A stretch of 64,000 nt of DNA, taken from Blasia pusilla (Eukaryota). A program made the position numbers and the translations under genes. Of the stretch, positions 5,501-38,575 are shown one piece after another (position 1 is the first letter of the stretch; every line of letters starts with the position of its first letter). The stretch is taken from the NCBI GenBank assembly GCA_050084515.1, contig CM114271.1, forward strand, positions 46,748,001-46,812,000, read 5' to 3'. The notes under the pieces were generated by a model. That model made no database searches. It saw only the letters and a program-made list of their open reading frames with translations, and was not told where the DNA came from.

Positions 5501-8500
5501 TTCAATTTTCTTACTGTATGGATGAACTAATGTTTGTGTAAGCGTTCTTGTGCGTGAACTTGGCCAGATGGATAACTACTGACCAAGGCCGCACTAAAGA
5601 AATGGAGAGGACGAGCCTTCAGACCTCGAATATACATTCGTAATATGCTACCCTAGACTGCCCTGGAAAGAAAGAACAAACCCCTTTTAATAAGTCAGGT
5701 TCGAGTCTTATTGGTGAAAGAACAGCGTCGGTGGTCATTGGATGTCAATTTTCATTTTCCTTTTGACTCTGGTGAGTGCTACATTGTGCAGTATGTATGT
5801 ATGTAAATTGGTCCAGCTTTGTTATGCCACTGAGTTTCTCCAGCAGAAATAAAGATGCTTTATGGAAAAGAATTCTTGCCCGTTCATCTCATGCTATCTT
5901 TGTCGAAAATCTGCACTAAACTCTTGATTCTAGTAGAGAGATCTGATTTGCTCTATGGTTTGCAGTGCGTTGTCTACTGTTTGGTACATGCCTCTCAATA
6001 AGGAAACAACACATAAACTTGAGCAATCATTTGCCGAGCTTGCAGGAAACAGGCCGGTAGGACCTACTGTTATTAAGGAGGGCACACGCACCATTATTGG
6101 TTAGATTCCTTCTTTCTAGTTCTCAACCTCTCTCCAGTCAGTGTTTTTCAGAATTCTCCATTTTGCTTCCATAGCTTGCGCGCAATGTTTTATAGTAGCT
6201 TTACTGAACTTCTCAAACTTCTTGAACACGGATGGAACTTATAGGAAACAGTTTCTTTCTTCTTTTCACTACACACGGTTGCTTAGTGAACAGAGGAGTA
6301 AATACTAACAAGGTCTGGTTCCTTTTCACAGTGCCAAGGGCAGCGGGTGGAATTGCGATTTTCACTTTTGAGGAGCTCTGTGGCACGCCGAAAGACGCTG
6401 CAGAATACGTAGTAATTGCGGCATCATTTCACACTGTGTTCATTTCTGGCATTCCGCGGATGACACGGGCCCACGGTGAACTGGTACATATTTGTCACCT
6501 GTACGTAAAAATGCACGAAACCATGAGGAAAGTCAATCATGATGATGATCAAGAGCGAAATCAAAAAAGGGTCACGTCTACACTCTATGAAGAGGCAGCA
6601 AGGGTTGCGTTTGCAGATCGGAGATTATGTGAATCTTGTGGTGCGGCAGAAATTTAAGCTAGCAGATTCCGAGGTGAAAACAACTAGTATTTTCAACTGA
6701 TGGGGTCCATTTTGGTGTAAAATGTGCAGGCCCGACAGTTCGTTACTTTGGTCGACGTTCTCTATTTGCAGGTGAACATCTGCCACAACTCAGGGCTACC
6801 CGATAGCAGTGAAAGTTACTAATGTGTGAAATCTGTGCCATATTCATGAAAGTCTATCACTCTTCGTGCTGACCTGCTGACTCGAAGAAAGGTGATTTTT
6901 TCCCAGGAAGTTCATGTTTGTGAGCTAGGGCATGTCCAGAAATATACTTTGTTCCGAATGATGCCAGGCGTTTGTAATACTTCCGAGTCTTACTGCTAAC
7001 TGAGACAGGAAGCTCTGTTAAAGACTGCCACTCACAGTAGTGATAGTCGTAAAGACCCTGTAGGAGTGATGGGTTTGCGTCCTTTATTCTGGAATGTAAA
7101 CTGGTCAAGTCATGAAATCAGAACTTCGTTTCTGCTTCAGCTACTTTTGTGATATGTGATCATGAATCTTGTTCTTGACAGAGGGTGAAGCTGATAGTCA
7201 GTGCCGATGCAGATCCCGGTAGCGTGTACCGGCCCAGGTACGCTTCACAGTGAAAACATTCGTATCTTATTCCTCAAAGCTTGCTAGATCATGGTTGGTT
7301 GCACGTACTGAAAGTGTTAGTTTGATTTTCGTTCGGAAGTCAGTTTACCAGCGAAGAAGAATACATTGGGAAGCATTTTGAGCGAAGAATGGTAGCCGCT
7401 GAGTCGACCTATGTATGTGTGGTACACTGGAAATTTGTCTAGGGAAGTAATTCCGAGAATGTCGCTGCTACAGACACGAAGAAGAACAAGTTGGACCTCT
7501 TGGCAGTGAGAGCGGAAAGCCATTGGCGAGTTCTTCATCGTACGTCGAGAGTGATGAAGAGCTTGCGTTTGCAAGGACTGTCTCTCGTCTACACCATATG
7601 CAGTCTGCAGAGTACTTGTCAGCCCCTTGGGTTCCACCAGGAAAGGCGCTTTTGGTCGATTTGTTTAGTATTAAGCTCCGCGAAGGCGATTTGCGCAGGT
7701 ACATCCGCAGCAAATCAATGGAAAGCTTCTTGCATCGTTTTTGTAGAGATGAAATGAAGACATGTCACTTGAGAACCGGTCCTGCCTCACTTGAGCTGTT
7801 TCCTCGAGCACACTCGAAATTATCATCTGTCTGCAGTACAGTCTCATTGCAGAGCTGCCTCTATTCAGAGATCAGCTAGCTGTCCTGACCATTCAATTCG
7901 CGCAGTGGGTTCATTTTCCTTACGCCTGTGACTAGGTTCTCCCATTTTGTCTGAATTGTACCACAAATAGTTGTAACTTCACGTAATTGAATTGATCGGT
8001 CTATGACACCCTGATCCTCCGGGAAGTTTAACGGGTTTCGCACTTGGAATGAGGATCTTATTTTATTGGTCAAACGACTCCGCAAACATTGAATGGTCGA
8101 TGTTGTATCTGGGTACCATGTGAGTAGAGCGTGTAGGCTAAATATGCCGTGTGTGTTAATGCCGTGAGGATTCACTGGGCGGATGTGCGTCTACTCAGGT
8201 GATGGAGTCTCCTCATCACTAACTGCGACAACCTGTTTCCTTCATTCAGGATATGGGACCGGTACAACACGGACCAGGATTCTACGCTGAGTCGCGAAGA
8301 ACTGCGGCTCATGATGGAGGACCTCACAGAGATGAAGTCAGGTCATCGAAACGTGTTCCCGGTGAGTTGCGTTGGACAGTTTTCCATCCAGTAGTGAGCA
8401 TGAGAAGTGATATATCATACAAGGGCTTAATCAACGGAGCTTATCTCCAGTTGAAGAACACTCATAAGATCCTTTAGGGTGAAAATTAGTGAACGACGCC

Positions 8501-11900: not shown

Positions 11901-14854
11901 TGAGCACTAACTCCTAAAAGTTGACGAAGTCACTAAACTCCCTTTCTTACACCTTTCGCTGGACTAGTGTCGCGCTGCTAAGATTGGTGCTGTTCCCAGA
12001 CCTCTCGCTAGCTCGAGATTGATATCATCCCATCACTTCATTGGGAACATGATAGCTTTTCAAGGACATGGCGGTGTACTCGACTAGGACTACGCTGTGT
12101 ACACCATGTGATGTGGTACATGTGGTAGTTGTCTAAAGATACCAGTAGTTGGAGTTAATTCCTGTCCACTTCCCGTCAAACCCGTAGTTCCTATCCAGCG
12201 CTGCTTCACTGGATTTATTCGGGACGGTACGCCTCAGCTCGATGAGTCATCAACCGTGATCGACCAATAGTCACCCGCTACGATACTATAGTAGGCTTAT
12301 GCCCCCCCCCACAACCACCCCCTTAAAGTACGCTCCTCTTCACCCGAACCTCGGAACCGTATTGTGGTAATATTGCCCAAACGTCTTGTAACGCTTTCTT
12401 ATCTCCACCATGGTACCGTGTGTCTCCCTAGTGTAGGCCGAAGCGGCCTACTATAGCTACCAGTCTTGCTAAAAGTCGCGGCCATCTGACATCTCCTTTA
12501 CACATTGACGTTTACACAAAGGTAGGAATCCTCCTATAGTAGAATTTGGAAAAACCCGCTACAACGCGCCTACACCTACTGCAGTAGCCTGCATCTTTCT
12601 GAGACAGTTAGCCCCATAGCCGAGTCTAGCTCCCACCGTAAAATATTATATCACTGCAGTAGGTTGGCATCTGCTTGCAACATTGACGCGTGAACCAGAA
12701 GCTCGGAAACGTAGTGCGGTTTAGTAGGCCTGCGTTGCGCGTACACCCAGATCAACGTCGTCCTCTCCTTACCGCAGTAACCGCGTCTCTCCCTACTACA
12801 GTATATCGCTTCTCCAATCATTGTACTTTTTTCTTTCAATAATAAACTTAGACATGCAGTGGGGTTACCCCAACGGACGGAGACAGGACAGATCCCCCCC
12901 GCCCCCTTGGCCAGTAGACTAAACCTCCTGCTTTTCTTCGCGGAGGATCTCCTAAGATCTTTCCCGGTGTTGAACGAATTACGACATCAGAGTCAGCGCT
13001 CCCATATAACTCCTTAAAACGGGGGAAGAGATGGGGCTGCTTTCATATCTGCACTCTTGTTTTCAACGTCTAGATTATAATTTTGGGGCATATTGAATGT
13101 GACAAAAGCTTTTTTGTGAGTTTGGTTATGACAAGTGTACGACTAAAGAAAGACGACTAATAGAAGAATTGGGTTAGTATGTAAAGAAAATAATCATTGC
13201 CTATGCATGTAACTGCTTTTTTTTTCCTCTCTTCTTATAGCCTATCCATGTGGATTCCACTCGTCGTGGTCTATTCAAAATCTCTCGCCCCACATGTAAT
13301 TTTCTTCCCACACTCTCAAAAGGACCACACATTGGTTTTGTTGGGAGAAAACGCATGGCGGTCCCATGGGGTGAAAATCATTTTGATCCCTAGTCTAACA
13401 TGTAAACTCTATAGAACTCAAATCCTCTAAAAGCCCCTCTCTATGTGGATTCTATTGTAAATTAAGACAAAAATACTACATGGACGACAGACTTACACCA
13501 TAATGTACTTATATAAAAGTTCAAGTAATCTCATGAGAAATGGAATAGAAACAAGTTTAGGGACACTTTGAATATAGAATAGACATTTGAGAGAAGGTGA
13601 GAAATATACAAAACACATTTAATACTAGCCATTCCATACAACAATGAATACAATGGAAAGAAATAACATAGAAAAATTGAGAGACACATTATATCAGTGA
13701 ATGAAGAAATAAGAATTACACTACACAAGGGATTCGATATAGAGAGTCAAGAAGTACGACACAAGGATGAAGAACAAATGGACTCTGTTTTAGCGACCTT
13801 GGTTAACATTTTCCTCAACCTAAACAAGCTATATAGAAAATGGGGATTTCAATACATACAACCTACTTCAATACACTATGAAGCAACCTTGCCCTTTTGA
13901 TACATACGTGCCCTTATATAACATCAACATTGGCGTTTAAGTACATAATATAACCCTATGTACTTAAAATGGTAAGTAATGAAGGTTAGTACTATGCGGA
14001 TATTGTTCCACATCATGTTTACGCTCTGCTAGCCACTCTATGTGCACTAAATAGAAAATGCACTTGTGGCATTGTCTTGACGCATACTGCGAAATGTAGG
14101 CACTATGTAAGTGGGGACTATATTAATGAAGCTCCAATACAAAGACTATCAAGACAATAAATAACATAACTTAAGGATGCACAACTTATCTAGTTCATAG
14201 TGAGAGTTCTATTATATCTTCAATGTAGAGAACTTGTGGATTGTTTGGTTATATCTTTGTGTGAGTGCTCGAATAAAGTTGGTTGTAGTGTTTTTTTATC
14301 AAGGTTTCAAGGTTTTTGACATATTCCCTTCTTTTTTTCCTTTGTCACGTCTTTTAAGATAGATCGGTGAGATCTAGTAGGGCGCCTTCATGAATAATGG
14401 AGGACAGGCTCAATAGGTTGAGGATGACTTGTTGAGGCCTCGGAAAACCTGAGAGAGCAGGTTTCCCCTTCGTTTCGCTCATTTGGAGCCATATTTAGGA
14501 ACTTACTATTTTAGGTAAGTACCATTTTGAATATATGATCGACTTTCTATTTTTGGAAAATGGTCCTTGACCTCCTACATCAGGTCAAGAGCCAAGGAGG
14601 TGACTTGGGAGAATAGGTTACCATGGAGAGAGCTTGGGAGAGGGGAGGGGTATACCTCAAGGAGAGAGAGTTTGAGAGCTCATTCTCTCTTTGTTGAACC
14701 TCTTGGCATAAGGCGGCGGAGCTATGGTCCCTTGCCTTGTGAGTGTAATCCAAGCCTCTCATTAGGAGAGTGGGTTTGGTTTGACATGAGAGAGAGTGCA
14801 CACCTTTGAGAGCTATGGTGTGAGATGGTGTAAAGAGAGATTGGATCTTACTTT

Positions 14855-14870
14855 ATAAAGAGAGAATGAG
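14855..14870 (+). promoter_or_regulatory. Putative self-priming primer-binding site, family A
   Basis: ATAAAGAGAGAATGAG directly after a1 is complementary (one G:U) to CTCATTCTCTCTTTGT at 14679-14694, about 30 nt downstream of TATA at 14651. Confidence 0.7.
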
Positions 14871-16427
14871 AGAGTGAGAGAGCTTCATGGGGGAGTTCGC
14901 TGGTCACTTGCTGTTTTTGCAAGTTGGGGATCGTGTTCCCCGTTCAGCGGCTCATGAGAGTACTCACCAGAGCAAGGGCTTCTTTGATTGTTCTTTGCAT
15001 TTGCTGATTTTTCATGTGGAAGAGTGGCGCGCGGAAGCGCTGCCCAATTTTTGATAGGGATTGAGTATGGGGGTGAGTTTCCCCATGCCAGTGCTCTCGG
15101 GAGCACCATGTAGCTTGCTGATTTGTATTTTTATAGGTTTTACATTTTCTTTGGGAGAAATCAGCGCGGAAGCGCTGCCGAATTTTGTGTTGGAGAAAGA
15201 GACATTGGGCTTTACGATAATCCCTGTCAATTTTGACTAGAATGTCCGATTTTAAATATTTTTAATGCTATCGTAGATCGTAAAGTTATGCACATTGTGC
15301 AACAAACAATGCACAATTTGGAGTTGCGAGCAAAAAGTTATGGTCAATCTTGCAAAACTGTCATTGCTAGGCAATTTTTAGGGTTAAATTGTTCAAACCC
15401 TAATCAGCCGCCACGCCGGCGGCGGCTGTCACCATCCAGTCACCGTCAACGGTCTGCCATCAACGGTCAACCATCATCATCAACGGTCAACCGTCACCGT
15501 CACCGGTCGGTTTACACCATCAACGGTCAATCGTCACCTTCAATGGTCCATCGTCCGTTGTCCACCCTTTGGTTGCCATTGCCGCTGTTACGGCGTGGAG
15601 GGTCTTCCACGACGTTCGTTGATTCTCTTACTTGCGTCGCCACCACGTACTTTGTTTTGGCCGCCATCGTCATCGCAGTTTTGTCATCAACCAATGATGG
15701 CAGATGAGTTTTGATTTCATGCTGCTATGTTGTGATTGGTAGCTGTTCGACGACGATCGAGTACCGTGCCGTGACGCCCGTAGCCGCAACGCACCGCCAA
15801 TTGCCGCGCCGTGCTACTCGTGGCCGCACCGCACCGTCTCGATCACGGAGCCGCTCCATCATTATGGAGCTGAGTGTGGGTTTATTGTTGATTGAGGAGG
15901 GTATGCCGCCAAGTGCCGCATCGCACCATCGAGGGCCGTGCCATTCGTAGCCGGTCCGTGCCACCTGCAACGTCGCACCGTTCCGCTGGAACCGCACTGT
16001 CTATCGAGGAGTTTTGAGCAGCGTTAGTACGGGAGGAGTATGACTTGCAGATTGGAGGAGTTGTCTCCACGACCGAGTTGGGGTCGAGATTTGCAGTTGC
16101 TGAGGAGCGACATCGACATGTGTTTAGGTTATCCATTATGGTCCTTTACCCTGCACGTGTAAGGGATTCTGGGATTTGGGTAGTTTATTTGGGGATATTG
16201 GGTGTGTGGATGGTGAGAGCATCATTTATGTATGTGGTTTAGGGGACATAGACCTCTGTGGGATGTTCGGAGTTGAGGGTAGGTTATCGATGAGATGATA
16301 GCCTGGTCGATTTGCCGCACCACGCCGCTTGTTGCCGCACGTTACACGTCTCGGGGAGGGAGACTGTAGATCGAGTGCCGCATGTTTGGGATGAGTGATT
16401 GAGGGATTACTTGCAAGGCGAGAGTGA

Positions 16428-19400
16428 TTGGGTGAGAAGGGCACGAGGGTCATCACGGCGTCCATTTGGGACTTTGAGAGACGAAGTGGTGAACCTGAGA
16501 GTAGCTCTAGAGGTTTTACGCGGAGTGGCGCGAGGTTCCGAGTGTCTCCACGTGAGGGACCACCTCCACCTCCTTCTGTGTCATTGTCAGACAAGGAGGA
16601 GGGTGTAGAGGAGTTTGTGAGCACATTGCCACACATTGTGAGTGGTCATACCAGTTGGGCGTATGAGATGGACGACCCGGGTAGAGGACCGCGTAGCTTT
16701 TCAGGTGCAGTAGGTACAATTGAGTTGCACGATTTCATAGCAGAGTTTAGGAGTTGGTGCGACTCCCAACGGACCAGGAACTCTAGAGAGTTCAACCCGT
16801 TTACAACATGGAACGATATGTTCCAGCATTTAGAAGGGGCGCCCATGGACGATTACCATGAGTTCTCTCAAAGATATGCACGTGAGATCGAGGCGTGGAG
16901 GCTCTACTATGACCTACATTATGTGTCATAGACATAGCCGTTCCCAGATGAGGAGGAGGAGTCAGGAGAGGCTACTTCCTCTTCCACTAGTGACGTTTTA
17001 AGAGGGATCACTCGCACGGGAGCAGTTCCACCGTGTAGTCGGGTTTGTCCCAGGTTCAACCCTGTGGTTGAGTTCTTTGTTGAGTTGAGGGTGAGCTACC
17101 AGGGGGTACGGACGGAGAAGTTGCGGAGCATCCACGACTTCTAGAGGCGCCCGGGTGAGAGTTTTCGTGAGGCTTACACTTGCTTGCTCTGGTTGATCAA
17201 TGTCACTCAGGGGGTGACAGAGGCTCAAGCTATCCAGTCATGGTACGCGATGTTGGACCGGACCCTGCGGACACGTGTGCGGGAGGGGGTGCTTCTTATG
17301 AACACCTCCCCTACGTTGAGAGATGTTTTTAGGACCGCCGAGAACATTGAGCGCAACATGGCGGAGGAGAGCATAGCCACCATGGGTTCTGGGCGAGAGC
17401 AGTCGCGATTGTCTGCACCACATGTGCAGCAATGTGGACTCCGAGATAGGTCGACTGTAGCACCACAAGCTCAGGGAGCATACCGGGAGGCCATGCCACA
17501 GAGACCTGGGCCTTCATATGCGGCTCAACAGCAGCCGCCTACTATCACTTGTTGGTCATGTCGTGAAGCCCATCATCAACGCGATTGCACTCGTCAGGGT
17601 CATGGACGTGTGCCTCAGCATCGAGGGGAAGATGGTGCTGCACCAGGAGGTTATTAGTGTGACTATTGTCAGAGGTATGGTCATACACGCGCCAGGTGTT
17701 TCAGTTTACATCCTGAGTTACGTCCGGACCGAGGGCTAGAGAGGGCACCAAAGCGAGTAGCCGGTCCGGGTGGGCCTAGAGATCGTGCACCAGGTGGTCT
17801 CGTTGGGGAATGAGGAGGTGGAGTTGCCCGATAGGGTGGTGGAGTTCCCCGAGGAGGAGGTAGAGTACCATCACCTAGATGCACCGAGGGAGACGCGGGA
17901 CGTGCGGCTGGGATGGTTGCTCAAATACAAGAGCTACAAGAGCAGATTGCCGCTATGGCATTGAGGTTACCCGATGCCGAATGTGTGGCATCAACATCAT
18001 ATGGAGCAGCCAGAGACATGGAGGATCCTGGTTGGATGTGCGGGGCTACCCTGATGGAGGCAGCCACAGTTGTGACGCGTGGAGCAACAGTAGAGTTGGA
18101 TCCATAGCGAGGGGAAGCCAGGAAACAAACTAGGCTTCCTCAGTCTTTCACGTTGTTTGAGGCGATGAGAACCCCATCGATGGGTCCTGATCAGAGTTCT
18201 TGGAGAGTTGGTGATGTTGTTGGTGTGCAGGCACAGAGGGCGATAGGAGAAGCAAGTGCGATGACTCCTATTGTTGATGCTCAGGAGGGGCATATGTCGA
18301 GCACGTTGTTGGGGGCGGCCACCATTGTGTACCGTGCTCCTTTATTTTCTACTTCCAATGTTATGACGTTGGGGGGTACGCCCGCCGAGGCTTTTCGGCT
18401 GGCCGCTTCACTATGTGAGCGTGGAGTTGGAGTTCCTACATCACATTCACAGGTGATTGCAGAGGAGGTGATGGACCTGCCCTTGGAGCAGATGCTCGGG
18501 CCGTCCACGTCAGATTCATGGCAGGCTACGGCGGCTAGGATGGTGGAGATGCCCGCTAGACCCGCGATAGAGCGTGCCATGGCTTCTCCTGGTGTTGTGT
18601 TGCTGGATAACCGAGGAGAGGTCTTCCAATTGGTGAGTCCTAGAGATAGAGCTTTTAGTCCGCAGCGCGTCTTGTTGGATTCAAGAGCGCAACCCTTGAT
18701 GTTGGGGAAAGCGTCATTTAGAGGATTGGGCTTGACAAGAGCCGATGTGGAGCGTTGTCCATTCCGGATACAGACATCCTTGGATGGAGCGAGTACCACA
18801 CAATATAATATATTACCCGACAGGAGGTCGTGGTGAGGATTCGCGCGGGACATCCTACATATAAGTCCGTGGTGCGAGCCAAGGCGATAGTGACTGATGC
18901 AGAGTCCTACGACGTCTTGGTTGGTGGAGCAATGTTATACCCGATGGGGTTTTCCCTGGATTACTGGGAGGAGTCAGCATCCTACAGACTAGGATGGCAG
19001 TTAAATGATGGGTGCCTTACCTCATTACCCGTCCGATTCACATGTGCAGTGATCGAGCAACGTCCAGGAGAGATGGCGACCTTAGCAACATTTAGCAGTG
19101 CCATCACTTGGCCTGGTGATTTGATTGAGAGACATGTCCATACAGAGGATACTCCCATTCTTAACATTTCTATGGAGAGGAGTGTTATGGTAGCCGCATC
19201 ATTCCGTGGAGGAGAGGTGCCGCTGTGGGGCTCGACTGAGGAGCTTTGATGATTGGTAGATGAGCACGTGCAGACAGTGTGGACCGAGGCGTTTGCACCG
19301 GAGCGTGACGGGTTTGAGGAACCCGAGGTAGCAAGGAGTGCTACGATGACACCCTTGGATACCACACCCATTATGCGGTGTACCCTGGAGGAGGGTATTT

Positions 19401-20955
19401 GAGTGTTGGATCTCTTTGGAGGGATTAGCACCGGGTTAGCTACTGTTTTGCAGGCAAGAGCGCGAGTACAGCAGTACATGTATGTAGAGAGTGATGATGT
19501 TGCAAGGCGCATGTCACTACGATATGTGGCACAGTTACGCCTACGTTTTCCCAACTTATTGTCTGCGTCTGCAGTATAGGGGTACTAGAGTTCCCTACCG
19601 AGGGATATTTCATTATTGGGGGCACATGACTTAGAGCGGGTCGGGACCATTGATTTGGTCATTGTCGGTTGGCCATGTCAGGGCCAATCGAGTGTTGGAC
19701 AAGGCAGCGGGTTGGCTGACACTCGATCCATGTTGTTTTGGGAGATGTTGAGGGTCTTACGGTAGTTGAAGGAGCACCAGTCTCGTTCTCCAGCCTACAT
19801 TCTAGAGAATGTGCGGATCTTAGGAGACTCCATGTCATGGGTGGTGACGAGTGCTCATCAGGTATGTGCTTGGATCGGCCCAACAGTGTTCTTGGATGCG
19901 GCGAGTGTAGGTTCTAGAGCCCATTTCCCATGTGTATGGTGGACCAACTTGGTGCCCCATGCGGTGTTACAGAGGGCGTATGCGAGAGTGGAGCGCTCCT
20001 CCCATTTGTTAGTGGATTCCATTCTGGATCCAGGTCGTCGATCACACGAAGTGAGGCACGATGATGGACCACCGTTGACTGTGGTCAACAAGGTAGGCAG
20101 GCCGCGGGCAGCCTTGCCCACGTTTGTGAGTTTTCCCACTTCTTAGGCATACAAGGAGGCCCGTCCTAGCTTGGTTTGGACCAAGTTCAGCGGTTGGTGG
20201 AGCCCAACGCCGACGAGAGAGAGCGAGCGATGGGATTTCCCACACGAGTGACGGTAGTACTGTCAGTGTCAGAGGCATTACGACGCCATGTCTTGGGTTA
20301 GGCGATGGCTCTGGATTGCTTGACATGGATCCTCAGCTTGGGAGTGGTTGAGTAGCGCCGTATGAGATCGCGACAGATCACAGCGGTTGCGTTGGTGAGC
20401 CCCATGCCTACCAAGACGGTGGAGGCAATGGCTGGGGGCAAGACCCGGGGAGACCTACACACCAGGGGAGATCGGGAGAGATACCCTTGGACTTCTTGGG
20501 ATGTTTTGCAGGTACGCCATGAGATGATAGCCACAGCATCGAGCGTGGTTCCAGACACTACATGTGGAGGAGATCAGAGTTTGCAGTTGGGTGCAGGAGA
20601 GCGGCCGAGTGTTGTTGTTTGAGACAGGGTTGCACCATAGCAATCACCAATACCCGCGCTGGAGAGTCCTACCGTAGTCACGATGGAGACTTGGGAGCCA
20701 GGTATGGGCCCTAAGTTGACAAGAGGAGAGCGGCGCTGGTTACATCAGTTCCTCACGAGTTATAGGAGTTGCTTTGCGTTTAGCATGGAGGATTTGGGTA
20801 CGCTGAAGGGACCGGGGATCCGCATTGAGTTGTCGAGTGATACGCCGATCTTCCGACGATCCTACAGGTACAGTGATATGGAGAGGACTTTGATTCAGAG
20901 TAGGAGCCAGTACATGGTCGGAGCAGGACTAGTGGAGATGTCGCATGGGGAGTAT
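16428..20955 (+). pseudogene. Degenerate gag-protease-DNA methyltransferase-RT(N-term) polyprotein of element A-I
   Basis: Gag with two CCHC knuckles (CWSCREAHHQRDC, CDYCQRYGHTRARC), aspartic protease (VLLDSRAQPL), MTase motifs, RT start (PIFRRSYRYS). Many TAG/TGA stops and two small frameshifts. Confidence 0.88.
19394..20343 (+). pseudogene. DNMT3-like C5 cytosine methyltransferase domain within the A-I polyprotein
   Basis: Motif I GI*VLDLFGGISTG, II YMYVESD, IV DLVIVGWPCQG (TGGCCATGTCAG 19670-19681), VI YILENV, VIII AHFPCVWWTNL, IX ERERAMGFP, X RHVLG*AM. In frame with the protease C-terminal region upstream and RT downstream, apart from a 4-nt deletion near 20175. Confidence 0.85.
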
Positions 20956-23900
20956 TGTCGTACGCATACACATCGCTACACAACATACATCTATCACCGA
21001 ACATACACACAAACACGCACGATCCCATGCTAACTCATGGCATCCAAACAACGAGACAAGATGTACTAAAATATCTCCAATAAAGTAAGATCCAATCTCT
21101 CTCTACACCATCTCACACCATAGCTCTCAAAGATGTGCACTCTCTCTCATGTCAAACCAAAGCCACTCTCCTAATGAGAGGCTTGGGTTACACTCACAAG
21201 GCAAGGGACCATAGCTCCGCCGCCTTATGCCAAGAGGTTCAACAAAGAGAGAATGAGCTCTCAAGCTCTCTCTCCTTGAGGTATACCCCTCCCCTCTCCC
21301 AAGCTCTCTCCATGGTAACCTATTCTCCCAAGTCACCCCTTTGGCTCTTGACCTCATGTAGGAGGTCAAGGGTCACTTAACAAAAATAGAAAGTTGACCA
21401 TATATTCAAAATACTACTTACCTAAAATAGTAAGTTTTCTCAATATGATTCCAAATGAGCCGAAATGAAGGGGAAACTTGCTCTCTCAAGTTTCCCGCGG
21501 CCTCAGCAGGTCATCTTCGATCTACTGAGCATGTCCTCCATAACTCATGAAGGCGTTCTACTAGATCTCACCGATCTATCCTAAAAGACGTGATAGTTAT
21601 CGTGGGCATACACATCACTACACAACATACATCATTATCATCGAACACACACACAAACACGCACGATCCCATGCTAACTCATGGAATCCAAACAACGAGA
21701 CAAGAAGTACCAAAATATCTCCAATCGTCCCCCTAAATGGTGGTTAGGTCTCTCTAACTCCAGATAGCCCTCTATCTCTATCTACCATGACATACATCTC
21801 TAGGATGCTAAGAGCAGAAAGGCTAGGTGCTCATGTGGCCCCATCGTTAGTCGCCTTCCTGTCATCCATGTCACATAAAAAGTCGGAATCGAAACCTACC
21901 TAGTATCTCCTCTATATACATTTGGGACACATCCATCGTCCCCAAGGAACCCTAGTGAGAGGTGGCGTCAAACATGCCATATGCCAACCTCTCGAACATC
22001 CATCACAGACTAGCATCATGGCCGCACCATGGGTAGAACCACACAACATACAACGCAAGCCTGCAGGAACTATTGCTAAGCTCGGATCTACTCTACCAGC
22101 AATGTTAGGAAGGTCACATGGCGCACAATTACGCACATGGTCCTTCCATACCATACCATCGCGTCCCTCCAGCAAGAGAACATCGGCTGGCAAAACGTCA
22201 CGCACTCTCAAGATAATGCGCCTATAGTCACATCCAACATCATTGGTGCCGTCTGCTGCAAGTAGATATAATATTCCTGATGAAACCTCCAGATAGTTGG
22301 TCGATAACCACCACCCTGAATAGTCGCATACATCAACGTATCCCGATGCTGCGCAATCGCCAAGTTCTCGAACGCCATGGGCATCACTCTCCGAAACAAC
22401 TCAGCCCTCTGAGAACATGCTCGCATCCATACATCTGGGTCATCAAGGTCCAAAGACTCACCAAAGATCTCGACGAATGGCCGTAGGTAAATCTGGCTCT
22501 CGGCCATAAAGTAGCAAGTACGGTGAAAAAGACGCTAAGGATGCCTGCTTGCTGAATATGTATCCCATCGCCAACCAGGGCAACTGGAGGTCCCAATCTC
22601 CTAGGTGACCTCTTTGCAAGCCATACTTGCGTAAACCCCTCTTCACCGTCTGCACAACTCTCTCCGCTAATCCATCCGCCTCGGGATGATCTCGCGAAGT
22701 CGTACGATGTTCGATGAGTGCCTGATCACACAAGGCCTGGAACTCACCGCAAAACTCGGTACCATGGTCTATCAACACCTCAGCCGGTGCGCCATAATGA
22801 CTCAGCTTTTTGTCAAGGAAGGCATAAGCTACTCCCGCAAACGATTTTTTAGGCAATGCAACCAACTCGATCCACTTCGAGAAGTGGTCGACCATCACCA
22901 ACACATAACGACTGTGACGCTCCGTCAAAGACAAAGGTCCTACAAAATCCAAACTCCATCTATACCCTAAGCCCATGATTGGTAATGGATGCAACTGTGG
23001 AGTCGCAGCATTGAACGATGCTCGGACCCGATCACACACCATGCACACTGGCAACAAATTGTTGAACGTCACTCTGCATACCTCGCCACCAATTCTGAAT
23101 CTGGAGCAAGTTGTACGTCCGCTTCACCCCAAAGTGACCCAACTCCTCGTGGGCATGCTGCACTAGTCGTACTCTCTGCGAAGGATGCGGCACTACGCGT
23201 ACTCTGCCATTCTCCCAAACCCTCAAAACATGCGTCCCCTCCCAACGGAACCGTCTGGCCCGCTGTAGGATCCGATCCTGCTCTCTAGCATCCACGGTGC
23301 TCGCAACACTGCCATACGAACGTACTCCAAGACTACTCCATCATCATGAATATCTCGGCCACTTGTCGTCTCCTCACTGGCCTCGGGATCCAATGACTCT
23401 CCACTAGACCTTGCCATCAAAATCTCCACTCTCAGGCTCTCCATAGCCAACATGCCTAAATAGGCTAACGCGTGCCATCTTGGCACTGACTCCTCATCAC
23501 TCTCTCCATGCCATCGAGCTTCAGTCGTATCTCGTTGACTCGGGCATGGGTTACGACTCAACCCATATGCATCTTGGTTGAGCGTCCCATGTCTCTGTAC
23601 CACCTGAAAATCATAATCCTGCAACAAGAAAGCCCATCAATCATATTCCTGCAACAAGAGAGCCCATCTCGCAAGCTTCCCTGTAAGCTTGTCGGACTCC
23701 ATCAACCACTTCAGTGGTTGATGATCAGTGATGATGGTAAAGGGATTGCCAAATAAGTAACACCTAAAATGCACGACAGCCCACACCGCAGCCAAGCACT
23801 CACCCTCATACGAGTTGTACTTCGCCTCTGCAACGTTGTTTGAGCGGCTAGCATAAGCCACCATGAAATCTCTACCCTCATCATCATGTTAGGTGAGCAC

Positions 23901-26900
23901 CGTTCCAAGCCCCAACATGCTCCAATCTGTGTGCAACTGGAAAGGACGCCACGGGATCGGTCTTCTCAAGATGGGCGCAGACGTCAATCTATCCTTGAGC
24001 AACTTAAATGCTCGCTCTTGCTCATCCCCCCAGTGCCACTCATGATCCATCTTTGTCAACAAGATCAAGGGCTTCGCAATCAAACTGAATCCCTTGACGT
24101 ACCGCGGATAGAAGTTCGCCAATCCCATGAATGCGCAAACACGGCTCACATCTGTAGGGCGTGGAATGCGTGAGATAGCCTCTACCTTTGTATGTTGAAC
24201 ACCAAGGCCCCTTGGGTATATCGTATGACCCAAATACTCAATCTGGTCGTAGAAGAACTTGCACTTGCCTGGATGTAGCTTCAGCCCATGTAATTGCAAT
24301 CGTCGAAACACCTCCTCTAGATGTCACTCATGCTCCTCAACCGTGGCCCTAAAGACTATGATGACTTCAATATAACACCTAGCAAAATCCAGACCAGCCA
24401 AGATCCTATCCATGACCCTTTGAAACTCAGTGGGGGCGTTCTTTAACCCAAATGGTGAGAACCGCCACTGGTACAAACAATCCTTCCCGTGAGGATCGAT
24501 GCCCCAAAATACCGTCTTCTGCCTGTCCTCCAATCTGATAGGCAGTTGATGGTATCCCGCTCGTAAATCCAATGAACTGAAGACCTTTGCGTGACCAATC
24601 GTATCAAAGATCTCCTCAAGGATGGGCATGGCATACCTATCGGACTTCGTCTGTCGATTGATAGGTCGGTAATCCCCACACATCCGCTTATCCGTCCAGT
24701 TGCCATGTACATCCTTCTTGGCGGGCATGACAACGGCACATGCATACTCCCCATGGGACATCTCCACTAGTCTTGCTCTAACCAAGTCCTGGCTCCTACT
24801 GTGAATCAAAGCCCTCTCAATATCACTGTACCTGTAGGGTCGTCGGAAGATCGGCGTATCACTCAACAACTCAATGCGGATCCCCGGTCCCTTCAGCCTA
24901 CCCAAATCCTCCATGCTAAATGCAAAGCAGCTCCTATAACTCGTGAGGAATTGATGTATCCGGCGCCGCTCTCCTCCTGTCAACGTAGGGCCCATATCTG
25001 GCTCCCAAGTCTCCATCGTGACTAGGGTAGGACTCTCGGGCGCGGGTATTGGTGGTTGCTATGGTGCAACCCCGTCTCGAACAACAACGCTCGACTGCTC
25101 TTCTGCAGCCAACTGCAAACTTTGATCCCCTCCACATGCAGTGCTCGGAACCACGCTCGATGTTGTGGCTATCATCTCCTAGCGTACCTGCAAAACATCC
25201 AAAGAAGTCCAAGGGTGTCTCTCCCAATCTCCCGTGGTGTGTCAATCTCCTCGGGTCTCGCCCCCGGCCACTACCTCCACCGTCTCGGTACGCATGGGGC
25301 TCACCAACGCAACCGTTGTGATCTGTCGCGATCTCATCTGACTCTGCTCAGCCACCCCCACGCTGAACATCAATGTCAAGCAGTTCAAGTCCATCGCCTA
25401 ACCCAAGACATGGCGTCGTGATGCCTCTGATACTGACAGGATTTACGTCACTCCTGTGGGAAATCCCATCGCCCGCTCTCTCTTGTCGGCGCTGGGCTCC
25501 ACCAACCTCTGAACTTGGTCATCCTAAACCAAGCCTAGACTGGCCTCCTTGTATGCATAGGAAGCGGGAAAACTCATAAACGTGGGAAAGGCTGCTCGCG
25601 GCCTGCCTATCCTTTTAACCACAGTCAGCGATGGTCGATCATCGTGCCTCACTGCTTGTGATCGATGACCTGCATCTAGAATGGAATCCACTAACAAATG
25701 GGAGGGGCGCTCCACTCTCGCATACGCCCTCTGTAACACCGCATGGGGCAACAAGTTGGTCCACCATAGACGCGGGCAATGGGCTCTAGAACCTACACTC
25801 GCCGCATCCAAGAACATTGCTGGGCTGATCCAGGCATGCACCTAATGAGCACTTGTCACCACCCGTGACCTAGAGTCTCCTAAGATGGGCACATTCTCCA
25901 GAATGTAGGTTGGAGAACGAGATTGGTGCTACTGCAACTGCAGTAAGACCCTCAACATCTCCCAAAACAATCTGGACCGAGTATCAGCCAACCCGCTACC
26001 TCGTCCAGCACTCGATTGGCCCTGATATGGCCAACCGGCAATGACCAAATCAATGGTCCCTACCCGTTGTAAGTCCTGCGCCCCCAACAATGAAATATCC
26101 CTCGGTAGGGAACTCTAGTACCCCTGTACCGCGGATGCAGACAATAAGTTGGGAAAACGTAGGCGTAAGAGCGCCACATGTCGTAGTAAGACGCGCCTCG
26201 CAACATCATCACTCTCCACATACAGGTACTGTTGTACTTGCACTCCTTCCTGCAAAACAATAGCTAACCCGGTGCTAATCCCTCCAAAGAGATCTAACAC
26301 TCGAATACCCTCCTCCGGGATACACCAAACAATGGGTGTGGAATCCAGGGGTGTCATCGTAGCACTCCCTGCTATTTCAAGTTTCTCAGACCCGTCACGC
26401 TCCGGTGCAAACGCTTCGCTCCACGCGGTCTACACGTGCTCATCTGCCAATCATTGGAGCTCCTCAGTCGAGCCCCATAACGGCACCTCTCCTCCACGGA
26501 ATGATGCAGCTACCATAACACTCCTCTCCATAGAAATGTTAGGAATGGGAGTATCCTCTGCATGGACATATCTCTCAATCAAATCACTAGGCCAAGTGAT
26601 GGCACTGCTAAATGCTGTTAAGGTCGCCATCTCTCATGGCCGTTTCTCGATCACTGCACCTGTGAATCAAACGGGTAATGAGCTAAGGCGCCCATCACCT
26701 GACTGCCATCCTGGTCTGTAGGACGCTGACTCCTCCCAGTAATCCAGGGAAAACCCCATCGGGTATAACACTGCTCCATCAACCAAGACGTCGTAGGACT
26801 CTCCATCAGTCACTATCGCCTTGGCGCGCACCACAGACTCATCTGTAGGATGTCCCGGGCGAATCCTCACCACGACCTCCTCTAAGGTGATATACTGTGT

Positions 26901-26960
26901 GGTACTCGCTCCACCCAAGGATGTCTGTATCCAAAATGGACAACGCTCCTCATCGGCTTT
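20956..26960 (-). mobile_element. Family A element, nested antisense copy (A-II), 5'-truncated: PR C-term, MTase, RT, RNaseH, integrase, PHD, then PPT-b-a-b
   Basis: 3' end CGACA at 20956 interrupts the RT of A-I. b2 20956-21080; a2 21081-21595; b1 21598-21724; PPT 21725-21737. RT (RMCGDYRPIN, LDLRAGYHQ, PFGLKNAP) ~23889-25016; RNaseH (LHTDWS, TDHQPL); integrase (HAHEELGHFG..CMVC, WSLDF, LIDHGTEF, GLAER) ~22208-23200; PHD ~21918-22053; MTase ~25355-26309. Confidence 0.9.
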
Positions 26961-28643
26961 CGCGATGCGTTCTTTGCTGGTCGATACGTTGAGGTATGCG
27001 ACTATTTGGGGTGGTGGTTATCGACCAACTATCCGGAGGTTTCATCAAGGAGATTATGTCTACTTACAGCAAACGGCATTGACGACGTTGGATGTGACTA
27101 CAGGGCGCACTATCCTGAGAGTGCCTGACTTTTTGCCATCCGGTGTTCTTTTGCTGGAGGGACGCGATGGTATGGTATGGAAGGACCATGTGCGTAATTG
27201 TGCGCCATGTGACCTTCCTAACATTAATGGTAGAGTAGATCCGAGCTTAGCAATAGTTCCTGCAGGCTTGCGTTGTATGTTGTGTGGTTCTACCCGTGGT
27301 GCGGCCACGATGCTAGTCTGTGATGGATGTTCGAGAGGTTGGCATATGGCATGTCTGCACCACCTCTCACTAGGGTTCCTCGGGGACGATGGATGTGTCC
27401 CAAATGTATATAGAGGAGATATTAGGTAGGTTTCGATTCCGACTTTTTATGTGATATGGATGACAGGAAGGCGACTAACGATGGGGCCACATGAGCACCT
27501 AGCCTTTCTGCTCTTAGCATCCTAGAGATGTATGTCGTGGTAGATAGAGATAGAGGGCTATCTGGAGTTAGAGAGACCTAACCACCATTTAGGGGGACGA
27601 TTGGAGATATTTTGGTACTTCTTGTCTCGTTGTTTGGATTCCATGAGTTAGCATGGGATCATGCGTGTTTGTGTGTGTGTTCGATGATAATGATGTATGT
27701 TGTGTAGTGATGTGTATGCCCACGATAACTATCACGTCTTTTAGGATAGATCGGTGAGATCTAGTAGAGCGCCTTCATGAGTTATGGAGGACATGCTCAG
27801 TAGATCGAAGATGATCTGCTGAGGCCGCGGGAAACTTGAGAGAGCAAGTTTTCCCTTCGTTTCGGCTCATTTTGGAATCATATTGAGAAAACTTACTATT
27901 TTAGGTAAGTAGTATTTTGAATATATGGTTGCCTTTCTATTTTTGGTAAGTAATCCTTGACCTCCTATATGAGGTCAAGAGCCAAGGAGGTGACTTGGGA
28001 GAATAGGTTACCATGGAGAGAGCTTGGGGGAGGGGATGGGTATACCTCAAGAGAGAGAGCTTGAGGGCTCATTCTCTCTTTGTTAAACCTCTTGGCATAA
28101 GGCGGCCGAGCTATGGTCCCTTGCCTTGTGAGTGTAATCCAAGCCTCTCATTAGGAGAGTGGGTTTGGTTTGACATGAGAGAGAGTGCACACCTTTGAGA
28201 GCTATGGTGTGAGATGGTGTAGAGAGAGATTGGATCTTACTTTATTGGAGATATTTTAGTACATCTTGTCTCGTTGTTTGGATGCCATGAGTTAGCATGG
28301 GATCGTGCGTGTTTGTGTGTATGTTTGGTGATAGATGTATGTTGTGTAGCGATGTGTATGCGCACGTCACCTTCTATTTCAGGTTGGATCAAGTAATGAT
28401 TTGATTATTCACTTGGTAGCCAATGAGTGTAAGTTATCAATTTGTAACATAATAACACTACTACATATGATATAAATCTGGAAGTCTAGAGAGCCGCAAT
28501 ATAGTCGCTATACACTCATACTCTACACACAAAAATCAAGTCAATTTTGAGTATTTTCGCCATGTTTTCTTACTCTTGTATAACACTAGAAAGAAAAACT
28601 CTTGAACTTTGTGCTAATTACTTCCAAGTTTGCATATACGGTG

Positions 28644-30170: not shown

Positions 30171-32454
30171 TGCCTACGTACGACAATTAGCCGTCTACAA
30201 TAGACAAAGGGGAAAAGATACCTTCGCCTTCCAGGATGCGTCGACCACCATTCTTTTCTTTTGTAGACGTGGTGCTGGTGGGAACCTAGTAGTTGATAAG
30301 CATAGCATCTCCATCACTAACATCGACAAGATAGCCAACATCTGTTTTCTTTTTATTATATTTTTCACTCTAGACCTGGATGAGAGGAAATCATTTCCAT
30401 GTAACTAGGTTCAATCTCAAAATTCATTGGGACATATACTAATTTTGAGATTTTTATAGTATAGTGAACCTAACCCTAACTTAAGTAAATTTTTAGTACA
30501 AAGGTATGTGTTAGGTTTATAGGTCTTGGAGATCATGCATGCTAGCATGACCATACGGATTATGTCGTAGAGTATAGTGTGCTAGTAGAGGACATACCTT
30601 ATGTAGGGCCGAAGTGTCTAGGTAGGGATGCGGTTTCATACATAGGGTTGGGGGTTACTCCGTTGAGGGTGACTTTTCCAGTAGGGCCCGCCCTTAGGTT
30701 GGAGGGTATAGTGTGGAGTGTACTCAAAAAACAATAGTTCTTTGAGTTGAGCCTGTTCCGTTGGGAGTTAGCCTTGGCTATGGTGGTTCCTAAAAGCTTC
30801 GACCTAGATTCTCCCATCGTGAAGTGGGTTTGGCTCCATTGTATGTGATTCTATATGTGTTTTACTACAGTAGGTCTTTCATGGATTTCACTCAAAGAAT
30901 TGGAGTAGATCGATGGTAGCTTGGATCGTAGATTAGAAGGATCTAGTTAGGGCTTATTGTATACTCAACTGTGGATATTCGTGGCTTGTGGCCTATTTTT
31001 GAGATGAGGATCTGGTACGTGATTGGTTGGGAAAGAAGCGTCTTGCTGAGAGCTTTCCAACGCACTTTAGATTGCCGGATTTCCTCAAGGGAGTTGGAAG
31101 TTATCAAAGATTGAAGATTCACGTTCATGTTCGATGGTTTTCTGATGTGGAGAGCTTGGAGTGTTGAAGCTCTGTAGGTTGAAGGTTCCTATTGCTACCT
31201 CTATTGTGATCTCATGCAAAGCTATCTGCTTGAGTGTGTGGAGCGGATTGCTGTTGTAGTGAAAGAGTGTTGCAGATTTCCATGTGCATGAATTTGGGCG
31301 GAAGCGCTGTCTGATTTGCGATTCTGGAGGTGTATGGACAACAAGTTTGTCTGATTTTTAGCTCGGAGTACAGAGCTCGGTTGTAGCTGATTTTTTGTGG
31401 AGAGGTAGCTATGGTGGCCAATTGAATTTTGGTTGAAATAGATTCAATTTTGGTTGAGTATTTGGGGCGTAATTGCTGGTCAAAATTTCTAGACTAGCAA
31501 GGTCTGGCTATGGTGGACAGCAGATCGGAGGGGCTGGTTGGTTGGTGACTCGTCCGTTGTTGGGGACGCCTATCCCGATGGGGGCGCCCTGGTTGGGCCT
31601 CTCTCCATAGCAAAGCATGGCAAACGGGGCGATAGGGGCATGTCTCGAGCATTTCTTGGCATTTCAAGGCTTCGAGGCAACTCGTGGTAGCTCGGGGCGA
31701 GTGGGCGTGAGAGGCGGAGTAAGGAGCAAGGAGCAAGCAAGCAAGCTTGCTTGCTTGGGCGCGAGGTAGTTTTTGCAGGATTTGTGAGTTGAGTGTTGCA
31801 TAACTGGTCACCCATCTTTGGGCTATTCTGCCTGGAAGACGCTTAATTGCTGAGTATTTAACTATGCCAGTGTACACATTGGTGTAGCTCCTTTGGTGTT
31901 ATTTGGAGATGCGTTAGGCGCTTTTATGCATCTCGGGTTTTCGGTTGATGGACCTCTAGCGCATAGTACGGTGTGGCCTCTCCATACATGTGACATTTTC
32001 AGGTGTTGCGAGTGCGACTAGCACGTCATCGACCATCGGCGGAGTAACTATTGCGTTAGAATTGTGTGGTTGGTTCTGTGGATTCAGGGGGCGCCACGTT
32101 TGGTGGATTGTGTTACATTGATTTCCGTTTTGTACTTCCATTTGCGATTTGAGGGTTGTCGTTGGACTTCTTGTATTTGGATCCCCTCCATCGTTGCTTC
32201 TTGCTTGCGCGCCCATTGTTAGAGCTTACGCTGATTTCCAGAGTAGTTTTACTCTTGTGTGCTACTGGTAGTGAGGCTGGAGTGATGACCAATAAGACTA
32301 CATTTGTTTCTTTCACGGTGAGAGTGGAGTGATGACTAGTAGATCGTGGGAGGCTTCTTGTGGTGATGACAGGTTAGGTTGCCTACACCCATAACTAGTA
32401 GAGCTAGAATAGTATAGCGACATTGACGTCACTTGGTTACTTAGTGGTGGTGAT

Positions 32455-38400: not shown

Positions 38401-38575
38401 TGGCTCAGAGAGAGCGCATTGTGCGACATGCCCATAAGGAGTTGGGACATTTTGGTATAAAGCGTACGTATAGCTTACTCCTTGGTCAGATATTGGTGGC
38501 GTGGCATGCATACTCAGGTGAAGCAATTGGTGTCACGTTGTATGGTTTGTGACCGGGTGAGGGCATCATTTAATG
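32455..38575 (+). pseudogene. B-I polyprotein, 5' part: gag, protease, DNMT3-like MTase (~35340-36295), RT, RNaseH, integrase N-terminus
   Basis: CWTCGGDHVRRFC and CDHCGRPGHPRECC knuckles; VLLDSGAQP; GICVLDLFGGISIG, LVISGWPCQG (35601-35630), YIVENV, WPRLWWTNL, EREHALGF, HVLGQAM; RT YIDD (~37226); LHTDWS; HAHKELGHFG..CMVC. Confidence 0.88.

Follow-up and report, generated by a model that had tools for sequence, protein, structure and literature searches.

The 64,000-nucleotide stretch of Blasia pusilla DNA analysed here (GenBank assembly GCA_050084515.1, contig CM114271.1, positions 46,748,001 to 46,812,000 of the forward strand; hereafter the window) holds four decayed insertions that belong to two families, A (copies A-I and A-II) and B (copies B-I and B-II), of one lineage of Ty3/gypsy-type retrotransposons. 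Each of them carries a cytosine-5 DNA methyltransferase (C5-MTase, here MTase) domain between protease (PR) and reverse transcriptase (RT), as an earlier sequence-only reading of the window had proposed for the same four places. Repeats and copies were compared by self-blastn of the window, which gives 89% identity between A-I and A-II, 87% between B-I and B-II, and about 65% DNA identity across the MTase between families A and B. In a Pfam scan of the 297 stop-to-stop open reading frames (ORFs) of at least 70 amino acids from the window, RVT_1, RNaseH, H2C2, rve and PHD follow one another in this order; the succession PR-RT-RNaseH-integrase with a DDE (rve) integrase is that of Ty3/gypsy elements. 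The complete coding layout runs gag(CCHC)-protease-MTase, an in-frame TAG codon, and then RT-RNaseH-integrase(H2C2 + rve)-PHD finger. To this explanation of the window as a whole a probability of about 0.8 is assigned, and the part of it that concerns identity and anatomy is held with still greater confidence.

Three-frame translation of the four places, with motif coordinates taken along the element strand, reveals the C5-MTase motifs I (VLDLFGGIS), IV (GWPCQG), VI (ENV), VIII (RLWWTNL), IX (ERERAMGF) and X (HVLGQAM) in unpermuted order in all four copies. The motif strings quoted in the sequence-only reading stand as regards presence and order, but the quoted set is a composite that no single copy contains in full. 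GWPCQG occurs in A-I and B-I only, with GWPYQG in A-II and GWPCRG in B-II; the catalytic Cys is kept in A-I, B-I and B-II and lost in A-II. ENV is present in all four copies, HVLGQAM in B-I only, since motif X is interrupted by a stop in both A-I and A-II.

The A-I domain (19340-20397, +) contains eight in-frame stops and at least one frameshift near 20155-20179, PC and ENV being present; its motifs lie at 19403-19429 (I), 19667-19684 (IV), 19799-19813 (ENV), 19934-19951 (VIII), 20215-20241 (IX) and 20287-20307 (X). The gap between motifs VIII and IX amounts to about 88 codons in A-I, and this is the stretch in which the target-recognition region of C5 MTases is located. The A-II domain (25302-26375, -) has six stops and no frameshift, with PY for PC in motif IV and motifs running from I (26300-26274) through X (25412-25392). 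The best preserved of the four is the B-I domain (35280-36355, +), with two stops and one frameshift near 35633-35642; PC, ENV, RLWWTNL and LGQAM are intact and the motifs span 35349-36259. The B-II domain (42614-43716, -) is heavily disrupted, with multiple stops and frameshifts, yet motifs I, IV (PCR), ENV, VIII and IX can be read from 43612 through 42710. None of the four window copies could make an enzyme, and the copies do nothing now.

The domain was further tested against PF00145 with eight single-frame reads, in which stops were written as X, at a cutoff of 22 bits. Two of the eight exceed it, A-I with 40.0 bits (E 4.2e-10) and A-II with 34.7 bits (E 1.7e-8); the domain is therefore present and a chance match is excluded. 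The remaining six, split by frameshifts, give no match, and no single ORF among the 297 of the window reaches PF00145 at E 1e-3, the domain being fragmented. The sequence-only reading had named a PF00145 match and retention of PC and ENV as checks on itself, and it passed both: PC is found in three of the four copies and ENV in all four, and both motifs are conserved in relatives.

Its statement that the A-I domain is in frame with PR and RT was not borne out: in A-I three frames are involved, frame 0 for the protease, frame 2 for motifs I-VI, and frame 1 from motif IX through the TAG to RT. It is instead A-II that keeps the C-terminal part of the protease, MTase, TAG, RT and RNaseH in one frame (26375-23640); this frame extends from 26999 to 21912 over 1,696 codons with 25 stops.

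Regarding the kind of methyltransferase, a phmmer search of the PDB with the A-II read returns DNMT3A first (E 9e-10), then DNMT3C and DNMT3B, with tobacco DRM at 0.009 (a partial alignment) and bacterial enzymes above 0.04. With a profile built from 16 family members the same DNMT3 group is returned at 2e-25 (DNMT3A), 1e-23 (DNMT3B) and 5e-23 (DNMT3C), followed by DRM (3e-14), M.HhaI (1e-9) and DNMT2 (3e-6); DNMT1 is absent among the best 60 of the 61 profile matches to the PDB at E<=1. An AlphaFold2 model of the MTase domain of a Marchantia relative (P0006, 58% identical to the A-II read) has a pLDDT of 95.3, and in a Foldseek search of the PDB with this model all matches listed to rank 49 are DNMT3A, DNMT3B or DNMT3C, the top one being 6f57_D (E 1.6e-19, target-normalised TM 0.85). 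Collectively, the sequence, profile and predicted-fold rankings and the motif order identify the domain as a putative DNMT3-type C5-MTase of the unpermuted kind, with DNMT3A/B/C as its nearest solved relatives and distinct from DRM, which agrees with what had been claimed from the letters of the window.

The likeness to animal DNMT3A, DNMT3B and DNMT3C comprises the motif order, the PC and ENV catalytic motifs, and the best match by sequence, profile and fold. In contrast to these enzymes, the domain found here is encoded by a transposon and fused to Gag-protease, lacks PWWP and ADD, and has a motif X (LGQAMD) from which the DNMT3 form differs; in structural alignments of the P0006 model it is only 19-23% identical to them. 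Neither PWWP nor ADD is found by Pfam among the ORFs of the window or in the relatives; a PHD finger is present on the integrase instead. DNMT3s of protists and algae are likewise without companion domains, according to passages of PMC12344493. Plant DRM is a member of the same superfamily and can be aligned to the N-terminal half of the domain, but its motifs are permuted (VI-X before I-V) whereas those in the window are not; the alignment is partial, joining profile positions 9-141 to chain positions 226-352, so that only the first ~140 positions take part. An ESM Atlas look-up with the Marchantia domain led to generic PF00145 clusters, phage included, with no alignment, and was not used as evidence.

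The sequence-only reading had made the MTase simply part of one polyprotein with RT, and here it has to be corrected. An in-frame TAG followed by CAR-YYA separates MTase from RT in three of the four copies, as TAG CAA TCA in A-I (20638-20646, +), TAG CAA CCA in A-II (25053-25061, -) and TAG CAG CCA in B-I (36543-36551, +), and gene models of relatives end there. The motif LNCLTWI is found in 10 of the 24 relatives examined; five of these ten gene models end 65-87 amino acids past it, and the other five, spliced or partial models, continue into RT. In tobacco mosaic virus, readthrough takes place where UAG is followed by CAR-YYA, as passages of PMC2754532 have it. The codon pattern suggests that Gag-PR-MTase constitutes ORF1, with the MTase at its C-terminus, and that RT-RNaseH-integrase-PHD is a readthrough extension. 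Live members would make Gag-PR-MTase abundantly and Gag-PR-MTase-RT-RNaseH-integrase-PHD in minor amounts, by readthrough. Since ORF1 lies before the TAG, the enzyme would be made in Gag-like amounts, and because it is fused to Gag it would be built into the particle.

It is scarcely conceivable that the MTase sequences are fragments of a host DNMT3 gene or pseudogene that happen to adjoin a transposon, or that they travelled with it once as a passenger. Bryophyte host DNMT3 genes, reportedly described by Yaari in 2019, enter as a reference-list entry only, and no other support for such an origin was found. Against it stand the identical placement of the domain, between PR and RT, in all four copies of families as diverged as A and B (~65% identical in DNA), the collinearity of PR (C-terminal part)-MTase-TAG-RT-RNaseH in the one frame of A-II, the lack of any intron seen, the position of all copies inside target-site duplications (TSDs), and dozens of relatives with the same fusion.

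Between families, the ratio of nonsynonymous to synonymous substitution rates (dN/dS) in the MTase is 0.147 (A-I vs B-I) and 0.168 (A-II vs B-I), and in RT-RNaseH it is 0.154-0.161; between-family dS is ~2 and thus saturated, which makes the ratio rough, but it remains clearly below 1 and equal to that of RT. A low dN/dS between families had been a further check named beforehand, and the 0.15-0.17 obtained, well below 1 despite the saturated dS, supports the earlier proposal. These rough ratios, clearly below 1, point to purifying selection on the MTase between families. Within families the ratios are 0.53 (A-I vs A-II, MTase) and 0.81 (B-I vs B-II, RT). The values of 0.38-1.08 obtained for the B-II MTase were discarded, as they came from a wrong-frame alignment across frameshifts.

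Transcription was followed in two RNA-seq runs with the same species label, from which 8180 and 8322 reads aligned. Coverage is strand-specific and in sense over both families, the MTase included, with a depth in the MTase bins of ~34-61 over A-II and 43-62 over B-I. Only 993 and 910 reads per run are at least 95% alike, most being 85-95% alike, and the transcripts therefore come mostly from other copies. The observed/expected ratio of CpG is 0.62-0.73 in the elements vs 0.79-0.84 in the host flanks.

Relatives of the domain, which score 23-58 bits with PF00145, are numerous; liverwort and Sphagnum gene models, at 50-63% identity, come first and Closterium next. A search for longer proteins with the A-II read gives 25 matches (16 in Marchantia polymorpha, two in Calypogeia fissa, two in Sphagnum and five others); the named long models are 32-66% identical to the A-II read, or 38-63% where coverage is at least 90%, and one of them, Mp_4g09160 (1278 aa), stands for 18 clustered sequences. 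A near-length search yields 198 proteins at E<=1e-10. Among the best 120 of these, the named ones are from M. polymorpha, M. paleacea, Riccia sorocarpa, Calypogeia fissa and Sphagnum, together with one labelled as a bacterial metagenome-assembled genome (MAG), and no vascular plant is named. The protein with the bacterial label (P0350, 'Candidatus Obscuribacterales' MAG) is 49% identical to a Marchantia transposon MTase over 98% of its length and is probably eukaryotic contamination of the MAG bin. In an exhaustive HMMER search, 1815 representatives were obtained at E<=1e-3, 512 at E<=1e-10 and 108 at E<=1e-30. In 16 relatives neither the Glu of motif VI nor the H-R-x-R of motif VIII varies, and the Cys of motif IV hardly does; the gene models from Marchantia, Calypogeia and Sphagnum have both PC and ENV intact.

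Domain order divides the relatives. Of 179 examined, 54 have RT before MTase, 11 have MTase before RT, 113 have MTase alone and one has neither; a PHD finger follows the integrase in 14 of the 24 long relatives scanned. A domain tree of 145 rows was built, from which B-II and domain matches shorter than 230 or longer than 450 residues were left out, and for which P0025 was used as root. All 54 proteins with RT before MTase (54 of the 65 with both domains) fall into one clade of 96 leaves, with a weak support of 0.65. The PR-MTase-RT proteins and the window copies fall into a separate clade of 32 leaves (support 0.81), with the exception of P0025. Support is 1.0 for the bryophyte clade (20 leaves) that contains the window copies and to which Closterium spp. 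are sister; seven of the ten neighbour proteins looked up are from Closterium, with the layout CCHC-PR-MTase-RT. Closterium is a close algal relative of land plants.

Further relatives are found in Mesostigma viride, in Klebsormidium nitens (KFL_013780020) and in a Scenedesmus sp. 'pol' protein. The last (strain PABB004, KAF8056149.1) has a related MTase, 39% identical (E 7e-42). Green-algal gypsy elements are similar to those of the window in that their integrase ends in a PHD finger, and differ in the order RT-RNaseH-MTase-integrase-PHD, which puts the MTase after RNaseH and not before RT.

The K. nitens protein KFL_013780020 (E 7.8e-29, 31% identity to the window copy) has the order CCHC-Asp protease-MTase, and this supports the kinship with the Klebsormidium element of de Mendoza 2018 that the sequence-only reading had brought up. 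The elements of the window are of the same kind as KnitGypsy-Dnmt3 of K. nitens, and the kind is also present in Marchantia, Riccia, Calypogeia and Sphagnum gene models. Shared features are the Gypsy type and an unpermuted DNMT3-like domain inside the coding region (passages of PMC5890265), and also the CCHC-protease-MTase order, as far as KFL_013780020 is concerned, which is not equated here with a published copy. The tree of de Mendoza 2018 places the Klebsormidium copies inside DNMT3, according to the passages seen of PMC5890265. Purifying selection on the domain is likewise shared, the published Ka/Ks of KnitGypsy-Dnmt3 being <0.2 in the same passages and the ratio here 0.15-0.17, and the repeats, called 'the same as that of a DIRS retrotransposon' in the legend of Fig. 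4c (PMC5890265), match the split direct repeats here. The hosts differ, a charophyte alga there and a land plant, probably a liverwort, here. Unlike the description of KnitGypsy-Dnmt3, two diverged families lie in one window, and the in-frame TAG after the MTase, the PHD integrase and the TSDs are unmentioned for it in passages of the main text of PMC5890265; the word PHD has no occurrence in that main text.

The likeness could be convergent, the bryophyte elements having taken up the MTase independently of Klebsormidium so that there would be no single old streptophyte lineage; this is judged distinctly improbable. Repeated independent captures of DNMTs by retrotransposons are documented in the passages of PMC5890265, K. 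nitens P0152 does not stand beside the clade of bryophytes and Closterium in the domain tree taken as unrooted, and 31% is a low identity to the window copy. However, the K. nitens protein is far closer to the window domain (E 7.8e-29) than DNMT3A is (E 9e-10), and it shares the CCHC-PR-MTase order. The PHD finger after the integrase recurs in the wider group (the 14 of 24 long relatives), Closterium is sister to the bryophyte clade, and the DIRS-like repeats of the published Klebsormidium legend (PMC5890265) can be set beside the split repeats of the window. These points favour one lineage of Gypsy-DNMT3 elements in streptophytes.

As for function, the live enzyme may be a de novo DNA methyltransferase that, on leaving the particle, would mark the element's own new DNA or its insertion site; judging from the sequence this is possible, at somewhat less than even odds. 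DIRS-type DNMTs of dinoflagellates carry out de novo CG methylation in yeast, as passages of PMC5890265 report. The main alternative is that the live domain is non-catalytic, either as a DNMT3L-like or decoy module that would bind or divert the host de novo machinery or in some other role, and this is unlikely. No activity of KnitGypsy-Dnmt3 was detected in yeast, the only published test of this class, and among DNMT3 paralogues DNMT3L and DNMT3B3 are reported to be inactive themselves and to regulate active members. Human DNMT3B failed in the yeast assay too, however, for which reason its authors grade the KnitGypsy-Dnmt3 result as inconclusive (passages of PMC5890265). Furthermore, a non-catalytic role sits poorly with the near-invariance of the motif IV Cys and the invariance of the motif VI Glu and motif VIII H-R-x-R in the 16 relatives, with PC and ENV intact in A-I, B-I and the Marchantia, Calypogeia and Sphagnum models, and with a dN/dS in the MTase as low as in RT. 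A catalytic enzyme thus remains the preferred reading.

Several observations weigh against the overall explanation. All four copies are broken within the MTase, and A-II has PY in place of the catalytic PC. B-II has GAG and a neighbouring indel at the place of the TAG, and relatives of other lineages are predicted as stop-free single ORFs, such as P0186 (2138 aa) and P0181 (2327 aa). The placement in DNMT3 rests on ranking against solved structures, a limit that is counted here, as are the saturated dS, the RNA reads, which are not assignable to intact copies, and the weak support of 0.65 for the clade with RT before MTase. Finally, KnitGypsy-Dnmt3 gave no detectable methylation in yeast, in an assay in which human DNMT3B also failed (PMC5890265, in part).

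The ends of the elements depart from the standard layout of two identical long terminal repeats (LTRs) at the extreme ends. The 5' end consists of a repeat A only and the 3' end of B-x-A-B, and this split arrangement of direct repeats, A1...B1-x-A2-B2, is seen at all four 3' ends in both families. DIRS-like, PAT and Ngaro elements have split direct repeats A1...B1-A2-B2. The repeat layout of the window elements is that of this group, but they differ from it in having an rve integrase, TG...CA ends and 4-bp TSDs, and no tyrosine recombinase; Pfam finds no match to the latter among the window ORFs. The TSDs are present in all three elements with both ends, CCTT in A-I, ATGC in B-I and AATG in B-II, and the empty site of B-II can be read from its own paralogous sequence. 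From the TG...CA ends and the 4-bp TSDs it follows that the insertions were made by a DDE integrase, despite the DIRS-like layout of the repeats.

A sequence AGGGGG resembling a polypurine tract (PPT) stands before B1 and not before A2, and no convincing primer-binding site was found downstream of A1. The B1-x-A2 junction equals the 3' end of the element, 2-3 nt and the 5' end of the element, and most RNA reads show it as the perfect palindrome GACAGCTGTC. Formally, the integrated copy would look like a two-LTR circle (LTR = B-x-A) reopened at x. The 104-124 bp after each 3' repeat were also considered as inverted-duplicated host flank, as a palindromic rearrangement or as an assembly artefact; this was rejected because the same piece lies upstream of the 3' repeat in four of four cases and inside the TSDs. 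Joints in DNA contigs that skip from B1 to B2 may reflect collapse of the B repeat in short contigs and were not used.

A-I spans 14343-28369 (+), with TG...CA ends and the TSD CCTT at 14339-14342 and 28370-28373; A-II splits it at 20955/20956, and ~2.4 kb of its RT-RNaseH-integrase are missing. Its 5' terminal repeat A1 (14343-14856, +) is 91.65% identical to A2 (27732-28245). The gag region (16668-18638, +), delimited by tblastn alignment to Marchantia gag-PR-MTase gene models, precedes the protease active-site stretch LLDSRAQP (18672-18695, +), in which the Gly of D-S-G has become Arg. Past the MTase lies the start of RT (20641-20955, +), truncated by the insertion of A-II. The 3' part (26983-28369, +) holds the end of the integrase-PHD region and the repeats B1 (27602-27724), A2 (27732-28245) and B2 (28246-28369), with the PPT-like AGGGGGA directly upstream of B1.

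A-II (20956-26958, -) is 5'-truncated and inverted inside A-I, with its 3' end (...GACA) at 20956. Its 3' repeat block (20956-21723, -) consists of B2 (20956-21079), A2 (21080-21593) and B1 (21601-21723). An ORF with the PHD finger (21915-22400, -; PF00628, E 1e-10) forms the C-terminus of the integrase region, and the integrase itself (22461-23340, -) comprises an rve core at 22461-23123 and H2C2 at 23035-23340 in a different frame. RT (24327-25058) and RNaseH (23640-24323) occupy 23640-25058 (-), with the YxDD box changed to YIEV.

B-I (30543-50143, +) is split by B-II into 30543-38575 and 48289-50143; its TSD is ATGC (30539-30542, 50144-50147) and its termini are degenerate (TA...AA). Repeat A1 (30543-30890, +) is 88.2% identical to A2 (49673-50037). 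Gag-PR is read in a single frame (32659-35256, +), 63% identical to Marchantia Mp_4g09160 over 867 columns, with the PR motif LLDSGAQP at 34609-34632 (+). The part from RT to the insertion point of B-II (36546-38575, +) contains YIDD (37224-37247), RNaseH (37554-37892) and integrase H2C2 (38307-38549). The 3' part (48250-50143, +) contains rve (48250-48561), PHD (48933-49385), B1 (49569-49665), A2 (49673-50037) and B2 (50038-50143).

B-II (38576-48288, -) is of full length and inverted inside B-I, with TG...CA ends and the TSD AATG (38572-38575, 48289-48292). Its A1 (47920-48288) and A2 (38682-39045) are 95.7% identical, and its 3' repeat block (38576-39152, -) consists of B2 (38576-38681), A2 (38682-39045) and B1 (39056-39152). 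A lone family-A 'A' repeat at 63050-63559 (-), 86-89% identical to the other A repeats, has no adjoining B repeat or internal region; it represents a solo repeat or, alternatively, the 5' end of a copy that has been lost.

In each family a younger copy is nested in inverted orientation in an older one, at the RT start in family A and in the integrase H2C2 region in family B. B-II entered B-I cleanly and in inverted orientation, and its higher A1/A2 identity (95.7% vs 88.2%) marks it as the younger copy. At the deletion junction 26958-26983, the 5' 4.4 kb of A-II and the ~2.4 kb of RT-RNaseH-integrase of A-I are gone, and one deletion across the boundary of the nested insertion explains both losses. 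The two cases of self-nesting may be due to chance or to targeting of like chromatin.

Some further features of the elements may be recorded. A PHD finger (PF00628) is C-terminal on the integrase ORF at 21915-22400 (-), 26797-27426, 39312-39641 (-) and 48933-49385; the chromodomain of chromoviruses occupies the same C-terminal position on the integrase. A leader of ~1.8 kb lies between the 5' repeat and the gag start in both families (14857-16667, 30891-32658), and in A-I it contains ORFs with a repetitive, low-complexity translation (15237-15711). In one run, many RNA molecules start at 30704, in A1 of B-I, and in two runs a loose-end RNA boundary lies at 27890, in A2 of A-I, each 158 nt into the A repeat; these may represent a transcription start or the edge of a variable U3.

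The elements are flanked by intron-split host genes for an AFG1-like ATPase and a GDP-mannose pyrophosphorylase, at 5071-6654 (+) and 52415-55528 (+). An exon of the latter is 94% identical to M. polymorpha, 90% to Calypogeia, 87-89% to Riccia and 82-89% to the named vascular plants, in accordance with the land-plant-type neighbours noted in the sequence-only reading, and on these identities the host is probably a liverwort. Air-metagenome runs with small matching shares were not used to judge habitat. An inverted repeat pair of ~480 bp and 83% identity (61111-61594, 62064-62528) is unrelated to families A and B.

The Gypsy-DNMT3 kind is already known and has been described so far from one charophyte alga; its occurrence in bryophytes is new in the literature searched. 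Passages of PMC12344493 and of 10.64898/2026.05.21.726589 cite the kind as one of 'streptophytes'. Marchantia, Sphagnum, moss and liverwort have no occurrence in the main text of PMC5890265, whose supplements may hold more. The literature searched contained no paper on DNMT-bearing retrotransposons in liverworts or mosses, passages of the REXdb survey (PMC6317226) contain neither 'PHD' nor 'methyltransferase' nor 'Marchantia', and nothing relevant was found in the literature on Chlamyvir. The leaky TAG, the PHD integrase, the integrase-type TSDs around split repeats, the self-nesting and the two alternative positions of the MTase seem to be undescribed.

A wider and more tentative joint reading, with the odds clearly against all of its parts being right, would make the window elements land-plant members of one old green-lineage gypsy clade in which a DNMT3-like enzyme goes together with an integrase bearing a PHD finger. 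Among streptophytes (Klebsormidium, Closterium, liverworts, Sphagnum) this enzyme would form the end of the Gag-protease ORF, before a leaky TAG, so as to be made in Gag amounts and packaged, and in chlorophytes it would be placed after RNaseH. The family would still be transcribed in the liverwort and would insert into its own older copies. Integration would be circularly permuted, a two-LTR circle being reopened at the palindromic junction GACAGCTGTC and yet giving 4-bp TSDs of the integrase type; such a route was not described in the literature searched.

Transposon-encoded DNA methyltransferases invert the usual picture of methylation as a host weapon against transposons. Diverged, selected and still transcribed bryophyte families widen what can be tested, with many gene models available in Marchantia polymorpha. 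As a model plant Marchantia is easy to work with, and both methylome maps and mutants of the host methyltransferases exist for it. The additional anatomy, that is the leaky stop, the PHD integrase, the split repeats with TSDs and the self-nesting, leads to testable hypotheses on dosage, packaging, targeting and integration. For annotation, it means that many bryophyte gene models named 'DNA (cytosine-5)-methyltransferase' are transposon ORFs. If the joint reading is true, model plants such as Marchantia would harbour elements that combine self-directed methylation with an unusual route of replication and integration.

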